In this document: piece by piece, positions 898 through 53,214 of the stretch
Layout: every line of letters starts with the position of its first letter
Numbering within the stretch: the first letter of the stretch is position 1
NCBI GenBank assembly: GCA_963775955.1
Contig: CAVZKT010000001.1
Coordinates: 85,437 to 149,436 of the forward strand
Source of the DNA: Candidatus Moraniibacteriota bacterium
GTDB lineage: Bacteria; Patescibacteriota; Minisyncoccia; Moranbacterales; UBA2206
Direction of reading: 5' to 3'
DNA length: 64,000 bases
Notes under the pieces: model-generated
Told to the model about the DNA's origin: nothing
Seen by the model: only the letters and a program-made list of their open reading frames with translations
Database searches by the model: none
Made by a program: the position numbers and the translations under genes

Positions 898-2142
898 ATG
901 TTTGAATTAATAGAAAAAAAACCTGCCCGCAATGCTTCGCATAGCGATGCAGGCAGGGAAAAGGCCAGAACCGGCAAAATAGAAACAAAGAGCGGAGAAA
1001 TAAAAACTCCGTTTTTTATGCCGGACGCGACACGGGGATTTGTAAAATCTTTGGGTCGCGAAGATCTGTTGGAGGCGGGGGTCGGTCCGCTGGTTGTAAA
1101 TGCTTATCATTTATATTTGCAACCGGGGACAAAGCTTATTAAAAAGGCCGGTGGAATCCGCAAATTTATGAACTGGGACGCGCCGCTGCTTTCTGACTCC
1201 GGAGGCTATCAAATTTTTTCTCTGATCCACAAAAATCCGCAAAACGGAAAAATTACGGATGAAAAAGCGATATTTAAATCTCCCTTAGACGGTTCGCTTC
1301 ATGAAATAACTCCCGAAAAGTCCATTCAGATTCAGTTTGATTTGGGCGTGGATATGATGGTGGTTTTGGATGATGTGCCGCCGAATGATTATTCCAAGGA
1401 AAAAATTAGAGACGCAGTTGAGCGGACAATCCGCTGGGCGGAGCGGTGTATGGCTGAATACAAAAAGCAGTTGAAAATCAGAAAAATAAAAAATGAAGAT
1501 CGGCCGCTGATTTTTTGCGTTATTCAAGGAGGAAAATATCCGGATTTAAGAAAAATGTGTGCGGAGGAATTAAAAAAGATTGGATTTTCCGCCAAGGGCG
1601 GACCAGCCTTAGGCTGGGATGGCTATGGTTTCGGTGCAAGGCATATTGATACTGAAGGAAACTTAATGGAGGAAGTGGTGCGCGAAACAGCTGATCTAAT
1701 TCCGGAGGATTCTTTGCGGTTTGCGCTGGGAGTGGGAACGCCGGAGGATATAGTTCGCTGTTTTAATTTAGGCTGGGATATGTTTGATTGCGTAATTCCG
1801 ACAAGAGAAGGCCGCCACGGCCGATTGTTTGTGTGGAAAAACCTCACTCCGACCCTCTCCTTTAAAAGGAGAGGGAGTAACATTGAGAATGGTTTCTATG
1901 AAACCATTAACATTAATAACGAAAAGTTTAAAGAAGATTTTTTACCAGTTGATCCAAATTGTGATTGTGAACTCTGCCAAAATCATTCCCGCGCATATCT
2001 CAAGCATCTTTTCGCGACGGGCGATCCGCTGGCCATGCGCCTGGCCTCAATTCACAATTTAAAATTTTATATGGAACTAATGGAAAAAATAAAATTGACG
2101 TCTTTTCTGCGGAGGGTTGTAAAAATAGCAAAAGCGGGTTAA
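898..2142 (+). CDS. tgt: tRNA-guanine transglycosylase (queuine tRNA-ribosyltransferase)
   Basis: 414-aa ORF with LSDSGGYQIFSL, MMVVLDDV and the Zn site CDCELCQNHSRAYLKHL. Carries two palindromic in-frame extras (922-960, 1853-1875). Confidence 0.93.
   Translation: MFELIEKKPARNASHSDAGREKARTGKIETKSGEIKTPFFMPDATRGFVKSLGREDLLEAGVGPLVVNAYHLYLQPGTKLIKKAGGIRKFMNWDAPLLSDSGGYQIFSLIHKNPQNGKITDEKAIFKSPLDGSLHEITPEKSIQIQFDLGVDMMVVLDDVPPNDYSKEKIRDAVERTIRWAERCMAEYKKQLKIRKIKNEDRPLIFCVIQGGKYPDLRKMCAEELKKIGFSAKGGPALGWDGYGFGARHIDTEGNLMEEVVRETADLIPEDSLRFALGVGTPEDIVRCFNLGWDMFDCVIPTREGRHGRLFVWKNLTPTLSFKRRGSNIENGFYETININNEKFKEDFLPVDPNCDCELCQNHSRAYLKHLFATGDPLAMRLASIHNLKFYMELMEKIKLTSFLRRVVKIAKAG
922..960. repeat. 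Hairpin element P1 (CCTGCCC-GCAATGCTTCGCATAGCGATGC-AGGCAGGG) translated in frame within tgt
   Basis: Flanking inverted repeat CCTGCC/GGCAGG. The 22-nt core recurs as an exact reverse complement at 21518-21539 inside glmS. Confidence 0.85.
1853..1875. repeat. 23-nt perfect palindrome CCCTCTCCTTT-A-AAAGGAGAGGG inside the tgt ORF
   Basis: Read directly from the sequence. It encodes part of an extra segment, LTPTLSFKRRGSNIENG. Confidence 0.85.
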
Positions 2143-2163: not shown

Positions 2164-3601
2164 ATGGCAATAAAACAGGCCAATTCTATGGATAAAATCG
2201 TCTCCCTTTGCAAAAGGCGAGGGTTTGTGTTTCCGGGAAGCGAGATTTACGGTGGGCTGGCCAATAGCTGGGATTTCGGGCCATATGGAACGGAATTAAA
2301 AAATAATATCAAGCAAGACTGGTGGAAAAATTTTGTGCAAAACCGCGAAGATATAGTTGGATTGGACGCGGCGATTATTATGAATCCAAAAGTGTGGGAA
2401 GCTAGCGGGCATGTTGTTAATTTTTATGATTATTTAATTGAATGTAAAAAGTGTCACAATAGAATAAGGCCAGATACTTTATTAAGCGATGAAGATAAAT
2501 TTAATTCTCGCATCCAAAATAAAAGAAATTAATGCTTTAATAGAAAAAGAAGAAACTAGCGCAACTGCTCAATTAGATAATGTTGAGAAAATTCACAAAG
2601 AAATTCAACAAATATACAAAAAGATAAAATGTCCTACTTGCTCTGAATCCAATTGGACGATGCCGGCAATGTTTAATTTAATGTTTCAGACCAGCATTGG
2701 CCCTAATCGAGAATTAGCTTCAGTCGCATATCTCCGTCCCGAAACGGCGCAGGGAATTTTCGTCAATTTTAAAAATATTTTGGATACCACACGGCAAAAA
2801 TTGCCGTTTGGAATCGCGCAAATAGGCAAAGCTTTTCGCAATGAAATTACGCCTGGAAATTTTATTTTTCGCACGCGCGAATTTGAGCAGATGGAAATCG
2901 AATATTTTTTTAATTCGGAAAAAACAAAATGGGAAGAAAAATTTGACCAGTGGTTGGAAGATTTTAAAATATGGATGAATAAAATCGGAATTGATTCTAA
3001 AAAATTATTTTTTCACAACATAGAAAAAGAAGAACTGGCGCATTATTCCCAAAAAACTATAGATGTAGAATTTGATTTTCCCTTTGGAAGAGAAGAATTG
3101 TTTGGACTGGCTTATCGTACGGATTTTGATTTAAAAAGCCATAAATTAAATTATAGGGATCCAGAAACGCAAAAAGAAATTATTCCCCACGTGATTGAGC
3201 CGAGTTTAGGAGTAGAGAGAATGGCGCTGGCGGTGATGCTTTCGGCTTACATTGAAGAAAAAATTGGAGATGAGATGCGGGTAGTGATGAAATTTAAGAA
3301 TGATCTGGCGCCGATCAAAGTTGCGATTTTTCCGCTTCTGCGCAATAAACCGGAGCTTGTAAAAATTGCCAAAAAGATATATGATGATCTGAAAACTCAA
3401 TTTACGTGTGAGTTTGACGACAACGGGAATATAGGCAAGCGTTATCGCCGGCAGGACGAAATCGGAACGCCCTATTGCGTCACAATTGATTTTGACACTC
3501 TGAAAGATAAGGCGGTAACAGTGCGAGATCGGGATACGATGAAACAGGAGAGGGTTAAGATTGATGATTTGGTAAAATATTTAACCAACAAACTTAAATA
3601 A
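2164..3601 (+). CDS. glyQS: Glycine--tRNA ligase (alpha2 type), frame change within 2489-2532
   Basis: ORFs 2164-2532 (frame 1) and 2489-3601 (frame 2) join into one GlyRS. Motifs: [42 protein letters not shown], plus an anticodon-binding C-terminus. Confidence 0.9.
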
Positions 3602-7769: not shown

Positions 7770-8240
7770 TTATTTTATAAATAAAATTATTATAGCGATA
7801 AGGGAAATGACAATATCATTCACGCCATTTCGCAGATTCCAGGCGCAATCGGGAGAAAGAGAAGGATACTTATGGCACCACAAATGGAATTCATAGAGTT
7901 TTTTAAGTAATGGAAAATTAAATTTCCAATATAAAAATGTTAGAGAATCGGGGAATATTGAAGCAAAGATCCCAAGAAAAATGTATTTTATTTGGAGCGC
8001 GCTAAATTGATTAAAATAAATAAGCAGAAGTATAGCAAGAAAACCAACAGAAAAATCCAAAGCCACTTTCCACCAAGTATTTTTAAAAGTGACATTACTG
8101 TCAAAACCTTCCACATATTCCCCGTGGCGGAAAGTGTCCAGAATAAAATGCATGGCCAATGAAAAAATAACAATCAGCCAGGGGTTATGGATTTTTTCGC
8201 CGATGGCGGCGCCGACAAGGGCGTGAGTGGCTAATATCAT
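7770..8240 (-). CDS. Membrane protein, possibly a DUF457/YdjM-like metal-dependent hydrolase
   Basis: 156 aa, 4-5 TM segments. N-terminal MILATHALVGAAIG and HFILDTFRHG His motifs. Confidence 0.45.
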   Translation of the reverse strand: MILATHALVGAAIGEKIHNPWLIVIFSLAMHFILDTFRHGEYVEGFDSNVTFKNTWWKVALDFSVGFLAILLLIYFNQFSALQIKYIFLGIFASIFPDSLTFLYWKFNFPLLKKLYEFHLWCHKYPSLSPDCAWNLRNGVNDIVISLIAIIILFIK

Positions 8241-8348
8241 AATTTTAAATTTTTAATTTCAGATTTTAAAACAATTTCCAATTACTAAATTTTCAAAATT
8301 CTTAAAAGTCGGGTTGATAAACTTTATGTTTTAGGCTAGGATTAATTC

Positions 8349-9024: not shown

Positions 9025-10437
9025 ATGAAAAATAATTTTATATCACAACCCCAATCTATTATGCCAATGCTAAACCGCATATCGGGCACGCCTACACGAC
9101 CATTGCGGCGGATGTTTTGGCGCGGTTTCACAAACTGCAAAATGAAGAAGTTTTCTTCTTGACCGGCATGGATGAGCACGGAGCTAAAATTCAAAAAGCG
9201 GCCGAAGCGCAAGGCAAAGATCCGCAAAAATTTGTGGACGAGATCGGAGAAGAATTCAAAGATCTCTGGGAAAAGCTTAATATAAAATACGATAATTTTA
9301 TTTGTACCACCAATTCAAAGCACAAGGAGGCGGTGCAAAAAGTTTTGCAAACTCTTTATGACAAGGGCGCGATTTATAAAGGCGAATATAAAGGATTGTA
9401 TTGTGTGGGATGCGAGCAGTTCAAAAATGAAAATGAGCTGGTTGAGGGTAAATGCCCGGATCACAATACTGTTCCAGAAAAAACACGGGAAGAGTGTTAT
9501 CTTTTGAAACTGACTGAAATACAGCCAAAATTGATTGAAAAAATTGAAAAGAACGAATTTGAGATTGCCCCGGAAAGATACAAGAATGAAATACTCTCTT
9601 TTCTTAAAAGCCAGGAACTCAAAGATATTTCTGTTTCCAGGAAGAATGTTGAAATGGGGAGTGCCGCTTCCATTTGACTCGGAGCATACAACCTATGTTT
9701 GGGTGGACGCGTTTTTAAATTATCTCACCGGACTTGGCTGGGATGGCGATATGAATAATATTCCAAAACAATGGCCGGCCGATGTGCAGTTAATCGGCAA
9801 AGATATTTTGCGTGTTCATGCGACTATTTGGCCGGCGATTCTTTTGCATTTAGGGATTGGCCTCCCCAAAATACTTTTTACTCACGGGCATATTCTTTCC
9901 GGCGGGAAAAAAATGAGCAAAACTTTAGGCAATGTGATTAGTATTGATGAAATGCTGGAAAAATTCGGGACGGATGGGACGCGCTATCTTTTGCTTAGCG
10001 CCGGAACATTTGGAGACGATGTGAATGTGACAATGGAAAGAATGATTGAGAAATATAATGCTGATTTGGCGAATGGATTGGGAAATTTAATTTCGCGAGT
10101 TATAAAACTCGCTCAGAATTTCCAATTTCCAATTTCCAATTTCCAATCAATTTCCAATGACCAATTTTTAAATTTTATAAAAAATATAGAAATTGATAAA
10201 GCATTGGATTACGTATGGAATATTATTCAGGCTGATAATAAATACATTGAAGAAAATAAACCATGGGAACTTGTGAAAACCGATAAGAAAAAATTTGAGG
10301 AAGTAATGCGAAAGTTAATTATGGATTTACTTAATATTGCCGATTTAGTATTGCCTTTCATGCCTGAAACTTCGGAGAAAATCAAGAAAGCGCTAGAAAC
10401 CAAAAAAGTTGAACCGCTTTTTCAAAGAATAAAATAA
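9025..10437 (+). CDS. metG: Methionine--tRNA ligase (short form), frame changes near 9035 and 9535-9677
   Basis: ITTPIYYANAKPHIGHAYTTIAAD (HIGH) is readable just after ATG 9025 in a shifted frame. Also FLTGMDEHG, a Zn knuckle CVGCEQF...CPDH, and KMSKTLGN (KMSKS). Confidence 0.88.
10117..10170. repeat. Tandem heptamer array (AATTTCC x4 plus degenerate copies) inside metG
   Basis: Read directly. Translated as NFQFPISNFQSISNDQ. The same word array is in leuS at 19572-19637. Confidence 0.9.
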
Positions 10438-15353: not shown

Positions 15354-16312
15354 ATGGCCAGCTCAAAAGACATCAGACGTCGCATAAAGTCTATCAATAA
15401 CACCAAAAAAATAACCCGCGCGATGGAGATGGTTTCGGCTGCCAAAATGAGAAAAGCAGTAGCTTCGGTTTTCGCTATCCGCGCTTATGCGCATAGCGCC
15501 TGGAGCGTGCTCACGAACTTGGCGCGCGCGTTTGCGGAATATAATGTTGGGCTTTTGGAAAAGCGGCCGGTAAAAGCGGTGCTTATAGTAGTCGTTACTT
15601 CCAATAAAGGACTATGCGGATCATTCAATTCCAAATATCCAAAAAAATTATTGAGCAAATAAAAAATCCGGAGAGATTAAAGCTTAACAGGATAAATAAC
15701 AAAAATATTGAATCACCGGTATCTGATAAGGACTTGGTTATCGATTTTATTACTGTCGGCAAAAAAGGCGAAGCGGTGGTGAGGAAAATGGAAAAAAAGA
15801 TTGTTGCCAGTTTTCCGGAACTTACTTATCTTCCCGGGGTTGAAAGCGTGGGAGTTTTGGCGAAAATTGTGATGAATGAATATCTGGCGAAAAAATATGA
15901 CAAAGTGGTGATAATTTATACCGACTATATTTCCACTATTACCCAGCAGACGAAAGTGAGGCAACTTTTGCCAGTTTCCAAAATTGATCTGGAAAAACAA
16001 ATCGCCGAAATGGACAATATGGCCAAGGAATACGGACTCGCGCAGCCGAAAGTGGAATATAAAATTGAACCGAGTCCGGAAATTGTGCTTACCCATATTT
16101 TGCCGAGGCTTCTGGAGATGCAGATTTATCACGCGATTCTGGAATCAAACGCGTCCAAGGAATCGGCGCGCATGATGGCAATGCGCAATGCCACCGACGC
16201 GGCCGGGGAAATGTCAGACGAATTAACATTTGTTTACAACCAATTGCGGCAAATGAAGATCACGCAGGAAATCGCGGAGATTTCAGCAGGCAGAGCAGCG
16301 TTGGAAAATTAA
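15354..16312 (+). CDS. atpG: F0F1 ATP synthase subunit gamma, frame change within 15614-15662
   Basis: KKITRAMEMVSAAKMRKA at the N-terminus and ITQEIAEISAGRAAL at the C-terminus, in two overlapping ORFs. Confidence 0.9.
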
Positions 16313-16342: not shown

Positions 16343-17756
<1,414 letters not shown>

Positions 17757-18877: not shown

Positions 18878-21328
18878 ATGGAAAAATACGATCCAAAGAA
18901 AATAGAACCGAAATGGCAGGAATTTTGGCTTAAAGAAGGCATTTATAAGGATTATGGAAAATCCAAGAAGTTCTACGCTTTGGATATGTTTCCCTATATT
19001 TCCGGCTCCGGCATCCATGTGGGGCATCCGAAGGGGTATATTGCCACTGACGTAGTGTCCCGCTTTAAAATACTCCAAGGATACAGCGTGCTTCATCCGA
19101 TGGGCTGGGACGCTTTCGGGCTGCCAGCGGAAAATTATGCCATTAAAAATAAAATAAATCCCAATATCTTTGTTAAGGAAAATATCATCAGGTTTAAAAA
19201 ACAATTGGAAATGTTCGGCTTTACCTATGATTGGGACAGGGAACTTAGCACTACCGACCCGGATTATTATAAATGGACGCAATGGATATTCCTGAAATTA
19301 TTTGAAAAAAGATTGGCGTATGAATCCAATGAGCCGGTTAATTGGTGTTCCAGCTGTAAAACCGTATTGGCCAACGAAGATTTAGAAGGAGGAAAATGCG
19401 AACGTTGCGGAACCCAAGTAGTCCAAAAGAAGATGAGGCAGTGGGTCCTAAAAATGACCGATTACGCCGACCGTTTGCTTTATGATTTGGATACGGAGGA
19501 TCTGGATTGGGAGGAGCAAATCCTTGAACAGCAGAGAAATTGGATCGGCCGATCAGAAGGAGCCTTGATAGAATTTCCAATTCCCAATTTCCAATTTCCA
19601 AATAAATCCCAAAATCTAAATTCCAAAAATCAAAACTATCTAGAGGTGTTTACCACAAGATTGGACACTATTTACGGCTGCACCTATTGCGTGATCGCGC
19701 CAGAGCACGAAATAATTGAAAAATTGAAAGATAAAATTGAAAATTATGAGGAAGTAAAAAAATATATTATTGCCGCGCAGAATAAAACGGAATTGGAAAG
19801 AATGGAAATGAAAGAAAAAAGCGGAGTAGAACTTAAGGGCATAAAAGTTACCAATCCTTTTAATAATAAAGAAATACCGTTATTCGTGGCGGATTATGTT
19901 TTGGCGCATTACGGCACCGGCGCAGTGATGGCAGTCCCGGCGCACGATGAAAGGGATTTTGAATTCGCCAAGAAGAATAATCTTAAGGTCAAAGAAGCTA
20001 TTAAAAGCGAAGACAGTAAATCTTCCATAGAAAAAGAAGCCTTTATCAATGATGGAGTTTTAGTAAATTCTGAAAAATATTCAGGCTTAACCTCTAAAAA
20101 AGCCCGCGAAAAAATGACCAAGTGGCTGGAAAAAGAAAAGGTCGGCAAGAAAAAAGTAAATTACAAAATGCGCGACTGGGTATTTTCAAGGCAAAGATAT
20201 TGGGGGGAGCCGATTCCCATAATCCACTGCGAAAAATGCGGAACGGTGGCGGTTCCGGAAAAAGAGCTGCCTCTGAAATTGCCGGAGGTCAAAAATTATG
20301 AGCCGACTGGAACGGGCGAAAGTCCGCTAGCCAACATAAAAGATTGGGTTAATACGGTTTGTCCCAAATGCGGCGATCCGGCTAAGCGTGAAACCAACAC
20401 TATGCCGCAATGGGCTGGATCTTCCTGGTATTATCTGCGCTACATCGATCCAAAAAATGACAAAGCTCTGGTTGATAAAGAAAAAGAAAAAAAATGGATG
20501 CCGGTGGATCTGTATGTAGGCGGAGCGGAACATGCCACGCGCCACTTGCTGTATGCCAGATTCTGGCACAAATTTCTCTACGATATTAAAGTGGTTTCCA
20601 CCAAGGAACCTTTTAAAAGATTAATTCATGTCGGTTTGGTTGATGGAGAAGACGGAAAAAAAATGAGCAAGCGCTGGGGGAATGTGATAAATCCTGACGA
20701 TGTGATAAATGAATTCGGAGCCGATTCGCTGCGCCTTTATGAAATGTTTATGGGACCTTTCAGCCAGAACATTGCCTGGAGCACGGATGGCGTAAAAGGA
20801 GTGAGAAGATTTTTAGAAAAAGTTTGGAAATTACATGAAAAAATTAACAAAAATAAATTAGATAATAAAAAAACAGAAGCACTTATCCATAAGACCATTA
20901 AAAAAGTCACGGAAGATATTGAAAATTTCCGGTTCAATACGGCCATCAGCCAGATGATGATATTAGTTAATGAAATGGAAAAAGAAAAAGAGTTACAAGT
21001 TGCAAGTTATGAGTTGCTAATTATTATTTTAAGTTCTTTTGCTCCGCATATTGCCGAAGAGCTTTGGAATAAATTAGGCCGCAAGGAATCAATATTCCTG
21101 CAAAAATGGCCGGAGTATGATCCGGAGATCATTAAAGACGAAAAAATAACTCTAGTGATTCAGGTCAATGGCAAGGTGCGCGATTCAATTGAAGCGGATG
21201 CCGGAATTTCCGAAGCCGAAGCGAAGGAACTGGCCATGCAAAGCGAGAAAATAAAAACCCGGACAGCAGGCAAGGAAATTAAAAAAATCATTTTTGTCAA
21301 AGGCAAATTAATAAATATTGTGCTGTAA
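18878..21328 (+). CDS. leuS: Leucine--tRNA ligase
   Basis: 816 aa, intact. HVGHPKGY (HIGH), KMSKRWGN (KMSKS), CP1 editing domain TTRLDT. Confidence 0.97.
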   Translation: MEKYDPKKIEPKWQEFWLKEGIYKDYGKSKKFYALDMFPYISGSGIHVGHPKGYIATDVVSRFKILQGYSVLHPMGWDAFGLPAENYAIKNKINPNIFVKENIIRFKKQLEMFGFTYDWDRELSTTDPDYYKWTQWIFLKLFEKRLAYESNEPVNWCSSCKTVLANEDLEGGKCERCGTQVVQKKMRQWVLKMTDYADRLLYDLDTEDLDWEEQILEQQRNWIGRSEGALIEFPIPNFQFPNKSQNLNSKNQNYLEVFTTRLDTIYGCTYCVIAPEHEIIEKLKDKIENYEEVKKYIIAAQNKTELERMEMKEKSGVELKGIKVTNPFNNKEIPLFVADYVLAHYGTGAVMAVPAHDERDFEFAKKNNLKVKEAIKSEDSKSSIEKEAFINDGVLVNSEKYSGLTSKKAREKMTKWLEKEKVGKKKVNYKMRDWVFSRQRYWGEPIPIIHCEKCGTVAVPEKELPLKLPEVKNYEPTGTGESPLANIKDWVNTVCPKCGDPAKRETNTMPQWAGSSWYYLRYIDPKNDKALVDKEKEKKWMPVDLYVGGAEHATRHLLYARFWHKFLYDIKVVSTKEPFKRLIHVGLVDGEDGKKMSKRWGNVINPDDVINEFGADSLRLYEMFMGPFSQNIAWSTDGVKGVRRFLEKVWKLHEKINKNKLDNKKTEALIHKTIKKVTEDIENFRFNTAISQMMILVNEMEKEKELQVASYELLIIILSSFAPHIAEELWNKLGRKESIFLQKWPEYDPEIIKDEKITLVIQVNGKVRDSIEADAGISEAEAKELAMQSEKIKTRTAGKEIKKIIFVKGKLINIVL
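19572..19637. repeat. AATTTCC/CCAAA word array inside leuS
   Basis: GAATTTCCAATTCCCAATTTCCAATTTCCAAATAAATCCCAAAATC... translated as FPIPNFQFPNKSQNLNSKNQ, between WIGRSEGA and the editing domain. Confidence 0.88.
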
Positions 21329-21331
21329 TAA

Positions 21332-23197
21332 ATGTGCGGAATCGTGGGTTATATCGGCAAACAAAAAGCGGTGCCGATCCTTATTGAAGGGCTAAAAAGA
21401 CTGGAATACCGGGGCTATGACAGCGCCGGTTTAGCCGTAATTGGAAAGAATAAAATTACAAATGTTAAAGCTGTCGGAAGAGTGGCGGAACTTGAAAATA
21501 AAATCAACGGCCTGCCCGCATCGCTATGCGAAGCATTGCAGGCGGGGAAAAATATTTCAGGAACAATTGGCATAGCGCACACCCGTTGGGCGACGCACGG
21601 AAAACCAAGTGACAGAAATTCCCATCCCCACTCCGATTGCAAAAAAGAAATATACCTTGTCCACAATGGAATCATAGAAAATTATAAAGAACTGAAAGAA
21701 CGGTTAACTAAAAAAGGCCATAAATTTACTTCTGAAACCGACAGTGAAGTTATTGCGCATCTCATTGAAGAATTTAATAAAAAATTAGATTTTAAAAATT
21801 CAGTCATTGAAGCGCTGGAACTGCTTAAAGGAACTTATGGCTTGGCCATTATCAGCAAGCGGGAGCCGGACAAAATAATCGCCGCGCGAATGGGCAGTCC
21901 TTTGGTAATCGGGCTCGGGCGCGATGAAAATATCATTGCTTCCGATGTTTCGGCGATTGTGCGGCACACCGGTCAGGTGATATACCTTGATGACGGAGAA
22001 GTGGCGATTGTCGCGCCGGAAAACTACGAAGTGATAAATATCAAAAAGAAAAAAGTTGAAAAGAAAATCACTAGGCTTGACTGGTCTGTTGAAAAGGCGG
22101 AAAAGGGAGGCTGCGCCCATTTTATGCTCAAGGAAATTTTTGAACAGCCGCATACGATTGAAGATGCAATTCGGGGAAGGTTGGTTGTGCCCGAAGGAAT
22201 GGCAAAATTAGGAGGACTGCGAGATGTCGCAGAACGCTTAAGAGATATTAAAAAAATTATTATTGTCAGCTGCGGAACTTCGTATTATGCCGGGCTTATT
22301 GGCGAATATATGATTGAAGAATACGCTGGAATTCCAGTGGAAGTGGAATATGCCAGCGAATTCCGCTACCGAAAACCAATACTGGGTAAAAATACCGCAG
22401 TGATTGCCATCTCCCAATCCGGTGAAACAGCGGATACTTTGGAAGCGGTGCGAGAGGCAAAAAATAAAGGCGCGCTGGCCCTGGGAATAGTGAATACAGT
22501 CGGATCTACGATTGCCCGGGAAACTGACGCCGGGGTTTACAATTATGCCGGGCCGGAAATTGGGGTGGCTTCAACCAAATCTTTCACTTCGCAGCTTAGC
22601 ATTTTTGTTTTGATAACTCTGATGCTCGGACGACAGCGGGAAATGTCATTTGTGATGGGTAAAAGAATCGCCGGCGAAATGGCAAAAATTCCGAAATTAA
22701 TAAATGTCGTGCTAGAAAAAAGTAGCGACATTAAAAAAATCGCAGCTAAATATCTGAAATATGAAAATTTTTTGTATCTGGGAAGAAAATATAATTTTCC
22801 CATTGCCTGCGAAGGAGCGCTAAAGATAAAAGAAATTTCCTATGTCCACGCGGAAAGATATCCGACGGGCGAAATGAAGCACGGGCCCATCGCCCTGATT
22901 TCCAAAAATTTTCCTTCCATTTTTATTGCTCCACGGGACAGCGTGTATGAAAAAAATATTTCGGGCATGCAGGAAATAAAAGCGCGAGGCGGAAAAATAA
23001 TTGCCATTGCCACCAAGGGGGACAAGGAAATAAAGAAACTGGCCGATGATGTGATTTATATCCCCAAAACCCTGGAGATGCTCACGCCGTTGTTGTCCGT
23101 CGTGCCGTTGCAACTTTTCGCGTATTATGTCGGAACATTAAAAGGCTTTGATGTGGATAAACCCCGTAACCTGGCAAAGTCAGTAACAGTAGAATAG
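21332..23197 (+). CDS. glmS: Glutamine--fructose-6-phosphate aminotransferase
   Basis: MCGIVGY start, GIAHTRWATHG, two SIS domains, C-terminal DVDKPRNLAKSVTVE. Confidence 0.97.
   Translation: MCGIVGYIGKQKAVPILIEGLKRLEYRGYDSAGLAVIGKNKITNVKAVGRVAELENKINGLPASLCEALQAGKNISGTIGIAHTRWATHGKPSDRNSHPHSDCKKEIYLVHNGIIENYKELKERLTKKGHKFTSETDSEVIAHLIEEFNKKLDFKNSVIEALELLKGTYGLAIISKREPDKIIAARMGSPLVIGLGRDENIIASDVSAIVRHTGQVIYLDDGEVAIVAPENYEVINIKKKKVEKKITRLDWSVEKAEKGGCAHFMLKEIFEQPHTIEDAIRGRLVVPEGMAKLGGLRDVAERLRDIKKIIIVSCGTSYYAGLIGEYMIEEYAGIPVEVEYASEFRYRKPILGKNTAVIAISQSGETADTLEAVREAKNKGALALGIVNTVGSTIARETDAGVYNYAGPEIGVASTKSFTSQLSIFVLITLMLGRQREMSFVMGKRIAGEMAKIPKLINVVLEKSSDIKKIAAKYLKYENFLYLGRKYNFPIACEGALKIKEISYVHAERYPTGEMKHGPIALISKNFPSIFIAPRDSVYEKNISGMQEIKARGGKIIAIATKGDKEIKKLADDVIYIPKTLEMLTPLLSVVPLQLFAYYVGTLKGFDVDKPRNLAKSVTVE
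21511..21549. repeat. Hairpin element P1 (inverted copy) translated in frame within glmS
   Basis: CCTGCCC-GCATCGCTATGCGAAGCATTGC-AGGCGGGG. The core is the exact reverse complement of the tgt copy. Confidence 0.85.
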
Positions 23198-23215
23198 CAA
23201 GGGATATGATGCCTG

Positions 23216-23246
23216 CCCCGCACCAAGCGAAGCTTTGGTGCCGGGG
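23216..23246. repeat. Hairpin element P2 (CCCCGCACCAAGC-GAA-GCTTTGGTGCCGGGG)
   Basis: Read directly. A second copy with a flipped loop is at 30921-30951. Confidence 0.85.
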
Positions 23247-23290
23247 TGGATAAGCCTCGGAATCTGGCAAAAAGTGTGACAGTTGAATAG
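23246..23290 (+). other. Second, untranslated copy of the last 14 glmS codons plus stop
   Basis: Encodes VDKPRNLAKSVTVE*, identical to 23153-23197, with 10 nt differences in 8 codons, all synonymous. It is 48 nt downstream of the real stop and in the same frame. Confidence 0.9.
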
Positions 23291-30889: not shown

Positions 30890-30920
30890 ACCATTTGTGC
30901 GGGGTAAATCTGCCAGCTTG

Positions 30921-30951
30921 CCCCGCACCAAGCTTCGCTTTGGTGCGCGGG
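30921..30951. repeat. Hairpin element P2 (CCCCGCACCAAGC-TTC-GCTTTGGTGCGCGGG)
   Basis: Same stem as 23216-23246 with the loop reverse-complemented. An additional GCGGGG (30899-30904) pairs with CCCCGC. Confidence 0.85.
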
Positions 30952-34428: not shown

Positions 34429-36656
34429 TTACTTTTCAAACTTACACTCTTTGTTTGAACATTTGATTTTGCCTTTGGCGGCGAAGACAAGAAGGGACTT
34501 GCATTGCGGGCAGATTTCGCCGTTAGGTTTGTTCCAGAGCGCGAAGTCGCATTTGGGATAAGTATTGCAGCCGTAAAACAGACGGCCGCGTTTGGATTTT
34601 CGCTCAACAATATCCCCAACATTGCATTTAGGGCAAGTAATGCCCGTTTTCTTTTCAATTTTTTTAATGCCTTTGCATTGGGGATAATTGGAACAGCCGA
34701 GAAAAGTTCCAAATTTGCCGCGCTTCACCGCCATCGGCGCGCCGCAAATTTCGCAAATTTCGCCCCTATGTTCTTCATCCACTTTTTTTTCCGCGTCTGT
34801 TTTTTCCGTATGCTTGCAATTCGGATAGTTGGAGCAGGCGATGAATTTTCCAAAGCGCCCGAACTTCATGATCAAATCCCCGCCGCAATCGGGGCAGGCG
34901 CGGTCAAGTTTTTCCTGAAAATCTTCCTTTTTCACTTCTTTGGTTTTGGCCTCCAGATTTTTTTGGAAGGGCTTGTAAAATTCGCGGATTACCGGAACCC
35001 ACTTTCTTTTGCCTTCGGCAATTTCGTCAAAATCCATTTCAATGGTGGCGGTGAATTTAATATCCACTATTTCCGGAAAATGAGCGACCAAAAGATCATT
35101 GACTAAGGCGCCGATTTCCAGGGGATATAATCTTTTTTCTTCATTTTTATCGACATATTTTCTTTCAATAATAGTGGAAATTGTCGGCGCGTAAGTTGAC
35201 GGCCGGCCGATGCCGTTTTCTTCCATAACTTTTACCAGGGTGGCCTCATTGTAGCGCGGAGGCGCGGCTGTTTCTTTTTGGGCGGCCAGGATTCCGACCA
35301 AATCCAGATTTTCGCCGATTTTCATTTTTGGCAAAAGATTTTCGCCGTTGGCTTTGCCGTCCGTAGACTTTTGAGATAACCGTCAAATTTAACAGTGGAT
35401 CCATTAGCCTGCAATAAATATTTGTTTTTACCAGTAGCATCCACTTCGAGTTTTACTGAATCGAAAATTGCCGGCTGCATCTGGGAAGCAAGCATCTTTT
35501 TCCAGATGAGGCTGTATAATTTATATTCGCTTGGATCAATTTTGGCTTTCAGGTCATCCGGAGTTTTGTCGGGATAGGCCGGACGGATGGCCTCATGTGC
35601 TTCCTGGGCGCCTTTAGATTTGGTTTTATAAAATTTCGGATCAGGGAGAGCGTAATTTTTTCCGAATAACCGCGCGATGGTTTTTTGCGCGGAAAGCATT
35701 GACTCTAAAGAAAGATTCAGGCTGTCGGTGCGCATATAGGTGATATATCCTTTTTCGTAAAGTTTCTGCGCCTTGCTCATGGTGAACTTGGCGGAAAATC
35801 CCAGATTGCTGATAGCCGCCTGCTGCAGGGAAGAAGTGGTGAAAGGAGGGGAGGGATAACGCAGAGTTTCTTTTTCAGTTATATTACTGACTTTGAATTT
35901 AGCGCGCTTAAGATCGGCCACAATTTCGTCAGCCTTTTTCTGGCTGTCGATTAAAGTCTTTTTAATTTTATAATCGCCGGCGAATAATTTTAAGATTGCG
36001 GCTTGTTCAATTTTCTCACCGTTTTTTTCCGTGAGATTGGCCGTAAAATCCTGCTTTGAGCTCTGAACTTTGAACTTTGAATTTATAGCGTAGTATTTTT
36101 CAGACTTGAATTTTTCGATTTCTCTTTCTCTTTCAACGATCAGGCGCAGAGCTACCGATTGCACGCGCCCGGCGGAAAGTCCGCGGCGGATTTTTTTCCA
36201 GAGGAACGGGGAAAGTTCAAAACCGACCAGACGGTCCAAAATTCTTCTGGCTTGCTGGGCGTCCACCAGATTAAGATCAATCGCGCGCGGATTGTCTAAT
36301 GCTTTTTCAATGGCGCTTTTGGTAATTTCGTGAAAAACAATGCGCTTTGCTTCTTTGGGATTTAAATCCAAGGCTGAAACCAAATGCCAGGAAATAGCTT
36401 CTCCTTCGCGGTCTTCGTCAGTGGCGAGAATCACGTCTTCAGATTTTTTGGCCAGTTCTTTGAGTTCCTCTACTCTCTCGGCGGATTTGGCCGGAATAAC
36501 ATATTCCGGCGCAAAGTTATTCTCAATATCAATGCCCATTTTTTTGGCGGGCAGATCGCGGATATGGCCGTAGGAAGATTTAACGGTAAAAGCCTTCCCT
36601 AAAAATTTGGAAATAGTTTTGGCTTTAGTGGGGGACTCAACTATAACTAGCTTCAT
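34429..36656 (-). CDS. topA: DNA topoisomerase I, frame change near 35322-35334
   Basis: KLVIVESPTKAKTI, TOPRIM DEDREGE, and four C-terminal Cys4 zinc ribbons. Start at MKLVIVES (36656); an alternative is 36677. Confidence 0.92.
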
Positions 36657-52007: not shown

Positions 52008-53214
52008 ATGGCAGAAATCAAACCACCCGTAGAAACATTCGCGCGCATTAAAGTCGTGGGCGTTGGCGGTTCTGGAGGAAGCGCGATCAGCCGGATGATT
52101 GAATCAAAACTGCGCGGCGTTGAATTCGTGGCGATCAATACTGACGCGCAGGCCCTGCATCACAATAAAGCCACGGAAAAAGTGCATATCGGAAAAAATC
52201 TGACCAAGGGACTGGGGGCCGGGATGAATCCGGATATCGGACGGCAGGCGGCCGAAGAGAACCGCGAAGAAATTCAGGAGGTGCTTAAAGGGCTCGGATA
52301 TGGTTTTTGTCACTTGCGGATTAGGCGGCGGAACCGGGACAGGCGCGGCGCCGATTGTGGCGGAAACTGCCAAAGAACTGGGAGCTCTCACGGTCGCGGT
52401 GGTAACTAAGCCGTTTGCTTTTGAAGGCGCGCAAAGAAGGGCGATTGCGGAAGAGGGACTGGAAAATTTGCGCGAACGAGTAGATACTCTCATTATTATT
52501 CCCAACGACAAGCTGCTGCAGATTATCGACAAGAAAACGACGCTTATAAATTCCTTTCAAGATTGTGGATGATGTCCTGCGCCAGGGCGTGCAGGGGATT
52601 TCGGATCTTATTACCAAGCCAGGAGTGGTGAATGTTGACTTTGCCGACGTGAAAGCGATTATGGCAAGACAGCGGGTCAGCTCTTATGGGGATTGGCGTG
52701 GGACCGGGGGAAAATCGCGCGGCGGACGCGGCCAAGGCGGCCATCAACAGCCCGCTTTTGGAACTTTCCATTGACGGCGCCAAAGGCGTGCTTTTCAATG
52801 TCAGCGGGATCCAATGATCTGACAATGCTGGAAATCAATGAAGCGGCCAATATTATCACTGAATCCATTGACCCGAACGCCAAAGTCATTTTCGGCGCGG
52901 TGGTGGAGGAAACTATCAGAAAAGGGGAGGTGCAGATTACAGTAGTCGCGACCGGATTTGACGCGGAAAGAGTGAAGGAATCTCCAATAGAAAAAATGTC
53001 GCGGCTTTCCATTGAGCGCGGTAAAAATCAGGAAAGCGAAGGAAAAGAAAAGTCAAAAATTACTTTTCCGGCGCAGGGCGAGCACAAAATGATTATCGAG
53101 GAAAAGGTCCAGCCGAAACCGCAAAGAACTTTCACGCAGGTGGAAAAATCTTTAGAGGATGAGGATGACGAACTGGAAATCCCGGCGTTCATCCGGAGGA
53201 AGATGGGGAAGTAG
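52008..53214 (+). CDS. ftsZ: Cell division protein FtsZ, 4 frame changes
   Basis: [42 protein letters not shown], and C-terminal [12 protein letters not shown]. Junctions near 52295, 52560, 52665 and 52812 each look like one extra base in a GG/GGG or AA run. Confidence 0.93.

Follow-up and report, generated by a model that had tools for sequence, protein, structure and literature searches.

Ogata et al. are said to have described, in 2000, the Rickettsia palindromic elements (RPEs). In-frame palindromic repeats are already known in bacteria in two forms: RPEs, palindromic repeats of ~105-150 bp in Rickettsia that lie in frame in unrelated housekeeping genes (PMC10969869, PMC3184786), and intragenic copies of repetitive extragenic palindromes (REPs), imperfect palindromes of 20-40 bp whose intragenic copies encode extra residues and are most abundant in Opitutus terrae, a verrucomicrobium, and in R. 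conorii (PMC3733652). For REPs, a single-copy HUH transposase, the REP-associated tyrosine transposase (RAYT), has been proposed to bring about mobilisation in trans (Di Nocera et al. 2013, PMC3733652). The stretch of 64,000 nucleotides analysed here, referred to as the window (contig CAVZKT010000001.1 of a Candidatus Moraniibacteriota bacterium, whose nearest named relatives by Tgt and GlmS are Moranbacteria and Parcubacteria), carries two palindromic inserts, one in tgt and one in glmS. Both probably belong to a single family of palindromic selfish DNA of very small size (36 bp), here named E, which is comparable to REPs and RPEs and can be described as working like either while being a member of neither family. 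RPEs are in-frame palindromic repeats of a reduced genome, carry a conserved peptide and occupy sites where the protein fold is thought to be tolerant, and E resembles them in lying in frame and in its peptide; E differs in being 36 bp long and in occurring in the Candidate Phyla Radiation (CPR) and the Planctomycetes-Verrucomicrobia-Chlamydiae (PVC) group, a comparison of described features.

E has the form CCTGCCC-GCAnnGCTnnGCnnAGCnnTGC-AGGCGGG. Its 22-nt core, GCAATGCTTCGCATAGCGATGC, is present in the window in exactly two copies, one per strand, the two cores being exact reverse complements of each other; no further copy was found in the window even at up to three mismatches, and the number expected by chance was 0 (100 dinucleotide shuffles). 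Over their full length the two 36-mers are 92% complementary. Both stand out as G+C-rich islands in a genome of ~41% G+C, and the folding energy of their single strands, -11 to -13 kcal/mol, is moderately better than that of shuffles. Searches against Rfam gave no match near threshold over the tgt copy and one tRNA only in the whole window. The copies are read through in frame in different phases, yielding PARNASHSDAGR(E) in tgt and (G)LPASLCEALQAG in glmS (GLPASLCEALQA when the G of the preceding codon is included); the segments that would mark their translation are IEKKPARNASHSDAGREK in Tgt and NGLPASLCEALQAGK in GlmS. An earlier note on this DNA had reported the sequences at both sites, their exactly inverted cores and in-frame read-through in different phases, all of which is borne out; the length it gave, 38-39 nt, shrinks to 36 nt proper once empty sites in relatives are considered.

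At the glmS site the insertion can be seen in the DNA. Empty sites at loci L124 and L125 read AACGG^GAAAG, and the filled sites AACGG-36 nt-GAAAA, a difference of exactly 36 nt with no target duplication; the inserts in both genes are exactly 36 nt, or 12 codons, without target-site duplication. The segments are lacking in more than 100 Moranbacteria homologues of Tgt and GlmS. Among the 120 best GlmS homologues, which mostly have 609 residues, GLPASL[C/R]EALQA stands at the insert position solely in the window protein and in P0130, and a filled orthologous site is present at locus L123. More than 100 Tgt homologues have nothing between LIxKK and the next strand, and a few relatives have inserts there: P0006 carries PARNASYSDAGG, P0002 a 21-nt mini version, CCTGCCCGTCCGGCAGGCGGG, and P0005 the same 21-nt version broken by a 33-nt relative, CCTGCCCGAAGTTGCAACATCGTTGCAGGCGGG. 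The insert lengths at this site, 36, 21 and 33 nt, are all multiples of three. In a quick neighbour-joining tree of GlmS the two E-bearing proteins, which agree in site and in their rare core type, do not group as sisters and have closer relatives that are empty. In the Tgt clade the full 36-nt E, the 21-nt form and empty sites are interleaved, a pattern that requires more than one event, whether of precise loss or of insertion at a hot spot. Hosts that share the tgt and glmS insertions stand at 76-83% amino-acid identity.

In alignments with solved structures the Tgt insert lies within the N-terminal hairpin, and the GlmS insert faces an 11-12 residue gap between a helix and the GIAHTRW strand of the E. 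coli enzyme (1XFF, 4AMV), in line with the earlier note, which gave the E. coli proteins as about 12-13 residues shorter here. AlphaFold models place both inserts in predicted low-confidence loops: in Tgt (overall pLDDT 89, a confident model) the mean falls to 52 at residues 11-20, between strands 2-7 and 24-30, and in GlmS (overall pLDDT 78, a fair model) to 49 at residues 61-70, which follow helix 51-59 and precede strand 79-85. The proposal of that note that an in-frame palindromic repeat, RPE-like and about three times shorter, sits in these housekeeping genes is backed by the alignments of orthologues, by the DNA of empty sites and by the structure models. That the inserts arose instead as an assembly or sequencing artefact, through an adapter, a chimera or a repeat-induced misjoin, has a negligible probability. 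All sources are metagenome-assembled genomes (MAGs) and several window genes look frameshifted, but the same insertion at the same codon is present in independent assemblies from different projects and assemblers, its variants are lineage-specific and compensatory, and each gene runs through the insert unbroken and in frame.

Beyond the window, E is a widespread family. A pattern scan with CCTGCCCGCANNGCNNNGCNNNGCNNTGCAGGC over one genome per GTDB species returned at least 119 stretches, taken as 8-kb loci, with at least 126 copies; since the pattern itself prescribed the outer stems, their invariance is uninformative. The family figures given from here on refer to the matches listed. The exact tgt-type 33-mer occurs 24 times among them. 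The three bases 3' of the pattern, which lie outside it, are GGG in 97% of copies, the sole upstream bias is at position -1 (A in ~50%, T in 6%), and the flanks of the loci are unrelated, from which it follows that E is a unit of 36 nt with sharp ends. CPR labels include Saccharibacteria, Nomura-, Roizman-, Levy-, Gottesman-, Davies-, Staskawicz-, Nealson-, Magasanik- and Moraniibacteriota as well as Paceibacterota, and matches of high G+C content are labelled Verrucomicrobiota, Kiritimatiellia and Lentisphaerae, on contigs of up to 678 kb. A few low-G+C records carry the labels Gammaproteobacteria or Bdellovibrionales, which were treated as unverified. E thus occurs in at least two unrelated bacterial groups, CPR and PVC; the core, whose presence elsewhere the note had proposed to check, is found in many other genomes, and E is not private to the lineage of the window, being nearly unchanged across many CPR groups and PVC phyla. 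Most loci hold one copy per 8 kb, though a genome may hold more, with at least eight in one Kiritimatiellia MAG and two in this 64-kb window, and several MAGs have multiple copies with a sub-variant of their own, such as GT/AC in Kiritimatiellia SO_2017_LW3_126. Eight E loci, all of high G+C, were found on viral contigs, and no match was found in PLSDB plasmids or cultured-phage genomes. No published description of the sequence was found in the searchable literature, where keyword searches led to work on RPEs, REPs and transposable elements of the miniature inverted-repeat kind (MITEs) only.

The 51 distinct 36-mers share a core of the form GCA-N1N2-GC-T-N3N4-GC-N2'N1'-A-GC-N4'N3'-TGC, in which the pairs 11-21, 12-20, 16-26 and 17-25 covary: 85.8% of cells are paired against 64.1% in shuffles, and double changes at these pairs account for 49 cells against 16.5. 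None of 500 shuffles reaches the observed values, and the signal is lost when partners are shifted by one to three columns. If E instead formed one long hairpin, its inner pairs would be 11-26, 16-21 and 17-20, and these show no covariation beyond shuffles. This pattern indicates that the conserved fold is a pair of overlapping mini-hairpins, both with a 4-bp stem and a triloop. Across an A.A or T.T mismatch, GC pairs lengthen each of them; the two share G18-C19, and a pseudo-dyad relates one to the other. The reverse complement of the core has the same form with N1N2 and N3N4 exchanged, and either DNA strand presents the same fold.

With AT/TC in tgt and TC/AT in glmS, the two window cores are accordingly exact reverse complements, while the asymmetric C7 and A30 keep the same orientation in both. 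The description of the glmS copy as an inverted twin thus stands as regards the cores, though given the pseudo-dyad form a physical inversion of the tgt copy need not apply. Such an event, either inversion of the core between the CCTGCC/GGCAGG arms (a hairpin flip-flop) or ectopic gene conversion between antiparallel copies, is a possible but somewhat doubtful origin of the relation. It would account for the exact reverse-complement identity of the cores. In its favour are the 92% complementarity of the two 36-mers and the scarcity of the glmS-type arrangement (TC/AT-like relative to C7/A30), which is found in only ~3-4% of the family; a second hairpin family of the window, H, likewise has a minority of flipped loops (GAA/AAA against TTC/TTT), and conversion of the 17/25 pair of an ancestral TC/AC copy from the tgt template would give exactly the observed sequence. 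However, the orthologous glmS copy of L123 is TC/AC and differs from the window copy solely by the compensatory pair C17>T, G25>A. Being already TC, it makes the glmS arrangement old, and any flip must predate the divergence of the two and did not start from the present tgt copy. Ordinary mutation could suffice for the single remaining pair, and the final match of the glmS copy to the tgt core may have come about either by a compensatory double change or by gene conversion between antiparallel copies.

The coding context of E is strongly biased. In low-GC loci, 32 of 61 copies are embedded in long open reading frames (ORFs), and 31 of these 32 lie on the coding strand in phase 0, encoding PAR[N/I]A[S/T/A][H/Q]S[D/V/A]AGG (similar to PARNASHSDAGG). 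The host genes, which are essential and unrelated to one another, include those for UvrC, ribonucleotide reductase, two Mur ligases, GluRS, MetRS, a penicillin-binding protein (PBP) transpeptidase and the linker of FtsZ. In the common variant, as its sequence shows, five of the six frames are open, and the use of one of them in 31 of 32 cases therefore points to strong selection of one frame. The tgt copy is in this typical phase and the glmS copy in a rare one, and the two phases, correctly reported to differ, are not equally typical. The bias could also be read as selection for the 12-residue peptide, which would then be a functional module spread among proteins; the near-exclusive frame speaks for this. 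Such a reading is very improbable: the variable residues change radically (N/I, S/T/A, H/Q, D/V/A) and exactly as base-pairing dictates, indicating that the constraint on the sequence is nucleic; about half of the copies lie outside ORFs; the glmS copy persisted in another frame with an unrelated peptide; and the insert regions are modelled as low-confidence loops. Most simply, the frame constraint reflects tolerance of a small hydrophilic Pro...Gly-Gly loop.

Several features suggest that E is mobile. Copies are nested within copies, the guest inverted relative to the host copy, without duplication and at or next to the palindrome apex (17^18); locus L025 has three such levels, and L036, L078 and L115 one each. 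E also lies inside two unrelated MITE-like repeat families with terminal inverted repeats (TIRs), in one of them in a hairpin loop, and of the high-GC copies 10.8% are found within the loop of a flanking hairpin with 7 or more perfectly paired bp, compared with 0.65% of control positions. Occupancy is patchy among close relatives, with clean empty sites. Some insertions are nonetheless shared and old: in L003 and L054 the same protein carries E at an identical place close to its N-terminus, and L068 and L101, with homologous flanks, each have it near the N-terminus of a spanning ORF. Precise insertion without duplication, hairpin dependence, strand equivalence, targeting of tips and apparently clean loss are together best fitted by a non-autonomous element moved in trans by way of single-stranded DNA, the mode proposed for REPs and RAYTs.

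The proposed course of events is as follows. E would move as DNA, probably through a single-stranded hairpin intermediate, and would be mobilised by an enzyme not encoded beside it, the leading candidate being an HUH/Y1 transposase (RAYT or IS200/IS605-like) because this class acts on hairpins and leaves no duplication. It would prefer the tips of single-stranded hairpins as targets, and in the gene-dense genomes of CPR bacteria many insertions would land in ORFs. Those that survive would be the ones that keep the frame (36 nt being 12 codons), contain no stops, fall in surface loops and, in one frame, give the hydrophilic Pro...Gly-Gly peptide PARNASHSDAGG. By this pattern the tgt and glmS copies would be translated and tolerated passengers, not functional protein modules.

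A number of points weigh against this account. All-against-all clustering of the ORFs of the 119 8-kb loci, which would miss a single-copy mobiliser such as a RAYT elsewhere in the genome, found no mobilising gene beside E; no protein family is present in more than 8 of these loci, and those that recur are housekeeping and none transposase-like. The orientation of E relative to GC skew in high-GC loci is 27:26, without the bias that insertion of the IS200/IS605 type into the lagging-strand template predicts; the weak skew in low-GC loci, 37:19, is due to gene orientation. Translation of the inserts is suggested only by the frame bias, and the tgt and glmS insertions are old, being shared across hosts at the identity given above, so that any present activity of E in this genome is putative. 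In addition, orthologous copies in L003 and L054 differ by the compensatory pair 16/26, and compensatory change in resident orthologues could mean selection in situ for a host function instead of a retained ability to transpose. This last point bears on the possibility that E is a domesticated structure acting in cis and kept by the host, either as a DNA binding or topological site, as proposed for REPs, or as an mRNA hairpin affecting ribosome pausing or decay. Pairing kept by compensatory changes in orthologous copies of diverged hosts, and retention in essential genes over the divergence given above, would fit such a role, which is nonetheless unlikely, as copies are found in unrelated genes, in intergenic DNA, on either strand (in high-GC genomes), in MITE-like repeats and in each other, and close relatives are empty at the same sites with no visible consequence. 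The strand equivalence conveyed by the pseudo-dyad, moreover, favours constraint at the level of DNA over that of mRNA.

As a probable mobile selfish repeat, E can be set beside several other systems. The "peel and paste" elements of the IS200/IS605 group and their palindrome-only derivatives depend on hairpins and excise and insert precisely without target duplication; they have distinct left and right hairpins, a specific target of 4-5 nt and a replication-strand bias. E resembles them in its precise, duplication-free insertion and in its patchy occupancy with clean empty sites, and differs in that its target preference is weak and confined to position -1, where A is favoured and T avoided, and in that high-GC genomes show no GC-skew bias. 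The small dispersed repeats of heterocystous cyanobacteria reported by Elhai et al. in 2008 are likewise said to be very small (~20-50 nt) and nested within one another, and the GC clusters and byp elements of yeast mitochondria, also of ~20-50 nt, insert inside coding regions, byp being bypassed by the ribosome. These repeats are similar to E in size but differ in lineage and sequence, and the frame bias of E indicates translation, not ribosome bypass. MITEs have terminal inverted repeats and a target-site duplication and are larger (~50-500 bp against 36 bp), and E leaves no duplication at the glmS or nested sites. With REPs E shares the imperfect palindrome within 20-40 bp and the multiple copies. 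It lacks, however, the unpaired GTAG/CGTC tag of REPs (PMC3733652), its ends being CCTG.../...CGGG on one strand and CCCG.../...CAGG on the other; it is mostly solitary where REPs commonly form inverted doublets, and 32 of the 61 low-GC copies lie in ORFs whereas REPs are mainly extragenic. Its two overlapping covarying mini-hairpins also set it apart, as does its near-identity across phyla, most REP families being confined to one or few species, and no RAYT, a gene that in REP systems is flanked by the repeats somewhere in the genome, was found near it within the 8-kb loci. The TIGR-Tas system has tigRNA units of 36 nt (PMC12045711) and occurs in CPR. CRISPR and TIGR arrays are tandem, their repeats alternate with variable spacers, and box C/D-like motifs and a neighbouring Tas or Cas gene belong to them; such an array was rejected, since E is solitary, its variable positions are base-paired dinucleotides and not spacers, and no linked gene was found.

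Four features appear to be new: the 36-bp family itself, whose covarying fold is doubly symmetric; the near-identity of E in CPR and PVC genomes; its self-nesting directed to the apex; and its near-exclusive use of a single reading frame inside essential CPR genes. If the account given here is true, the lower size limit of recognisable bacterial mobile DNA would fall to 36 bp, and CPR proteins, among them aminoacyl-tRNA synthetases, FtsZ, Mur ligases, Tgt and GlmS, would be peppered with translated selfish DNA, with bearing on annotation, structure prediction and the reading of 'lineage-specific insertions'. The near-identity of E could serve as a sequence marker of horizontal exchange between CPR and PVC, groups not otherwise known to share mobile elements. 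Doubly symmetric hairpins and apex nesting, with no linked transposase found, pose the biochemical question of which enzyme recognises the fold, and whether selection acts on the element or on the host can be tested cleanly with the compensatory changes that separate orthologous copies. It is also conceivable, as a tentative extension, that E and the similarly built H represent an undescribed class of minimal mobile DNA: a palindrome of 36 bp that inserts without duplication into the tips of single-stranded hairpins, crosses CPR and PVC phyla, encodes a harmless loop in its commonest frame and is able to colonise essential genes of the most gene-dense genomes through a new or unexpected moving activity.

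Table 1. Coordinates of the E copies, their host genes and other features (positions are those of the window unless a locus is named).
Feature	Position	Strand	Sequence or size	Remarks
E copy 1	922..957	+	36 nt, CCTGCCCGCAATGCTTCGCATAGCGATGCAGGCAGG	Variable pairs AT/TC; in frame, tgt codons 9-20, peptide PARNASHSDAGR
tgt (tRNA-guanine transglycosylase)	898..2142	+	414 aa	Host ORF; homologues with PF01702; matches PDB Tgt chains
E copy 2	21511..21546	+	36 nt, CCTGCCCGCATCGCTATGCGAAGCATTGCAGGCGGG	Variable pairs TC/AT; in frame in glmS, start at codon position 2
glmS (glutamine--fructose-6-phosphate aminotransferase)	21332..23197	+	621 aa	Host ORF; usual length 609
H copies	23212-23246; 30917-30951			First just after the glmS stop; second between a tRNA gene and parA
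GIY-YIG gene loci	L022, L033, L038, L053, L077, L110, L124 19834-20088
Hairpin in tgt	1853-1875		CCCTCTCCTTTAAAAGGAGAGGG	Perfect, 10 bp; in-frame TLSFKRRG
glmS end and its repeat	23153-23197; 23246-23290		VDKPRNLAKSVTVE + stop	Last 14 codons; repeat 48 nt downstream, directly after H
AT-rich repeat	19568-19638; 8237-8307; 10113-10183		~71 nt, TTTCCAATTTCCAAT...	First copy in leuS
Overlapping same-strand ORF sets	2164-3601; 15354-16312; 16343-17393; 52008-53214			Two or three ORFs per expected gene
E-like string	34879-34898		20 nt	Rejected as E

Small GIY-YIG nuclease genes (~80-100 aa) of CPR genomes are bracketed by short inverted repeats of their own and often lie beside tRNA genes and a duplicated tRNA 5' fragment. 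They adjoin E directly in L033, L038 and L110; in the first two E lies within the duplicated tRNA 5' fragment, and in L110 E and the GIY-YIG gene are tandemly duplicated. Their link to E is probably indirect, because E sits in duplicated tRNA 5' fragments or tandem gene repeats, which are again hairpin-rich targets. On the viral contig of locus L130, the 4 kb between two inverted E copies contain no obvious transposase, and an ORF resembling a tyrosine integrase lies just outside. The two MITE-like families are ~190 nt long and both carry an E copy, one family being in L016, L032 and L097 and the other in L025, L030 and L049; their TIRs are GAGTCAGTTTCAAAAGTCC in a Verrucomicrobia MAG and GTAACAACTCAGG... 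in a Kiritimatiellia MAG. The 20-nt E-like string of the window was rejected as ordinary coding sequence of a cysteine-rich ORF with CxxC repeats.

Tgt and GlmS have further short inserts. The perfect 10-bp hairpin in tgt falls in a hypervariable Tgt loop, where relatives bear many short inserts (NLTPSLSL..RRG, SNFQFP.. and others) and where the AlphaFold model has a second dip in confidence (residues 325-330). GlmS homologues P0146, P0161, P0186, P0188, P0197, P0216 and P0232 (query position ~151), among others, have short in-frame inserts at other sites, examples from Moranbacteria being PASTRG(x)SSTRGG, KYPPKADSPLA, SQPKADPPMAEKLKVKSDC and PPRVDEQSSLRVEAGNQQPAI; their sequences suggest that these may be other translated G+C-rich palindromes.

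H is a mini-hairpin of ~35 nt with the form YTKG-CCCCGCACCAAGC-loop-GCTTTGGTGC-NGGGG, starting and ending like E (CCTGCCCCGCA...TGCCGGGG). The triloops of its two window copies are mutually flipped, GAA and TTC. A metagenome scan gave 27 more loci (L134-L160) with sharp boundaries, on contigs of 31-56% G+C, in which the loops are mostly TTT or TTC and in a minority AAA or GAA. The repeated end of glmS that follows the first H copy is in the same frame as the original, and every nucleotide difference between the two is synonymous. The same order of glmS end, spacer, H and second glmS end is present in the independent metagenome contig L152 and absent in L123-L125, and the repeat looks like the scar of integration into the 3' end of glmS by something carrying a replacement end.

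Among the sets of overlapping same-strand ORFs in the window, one corresponds to glycyl-tRNA synthetase, a single ORF in relatives, and such sets could stem from assembly indels or be genuine frameshifts. The AT-rich repeat of the window is read in frame in leuS as FPIPNFQFPNKSQNLNSKNQ, and similar 'NFQFP' segments are found in the Tgt loops of relatives.

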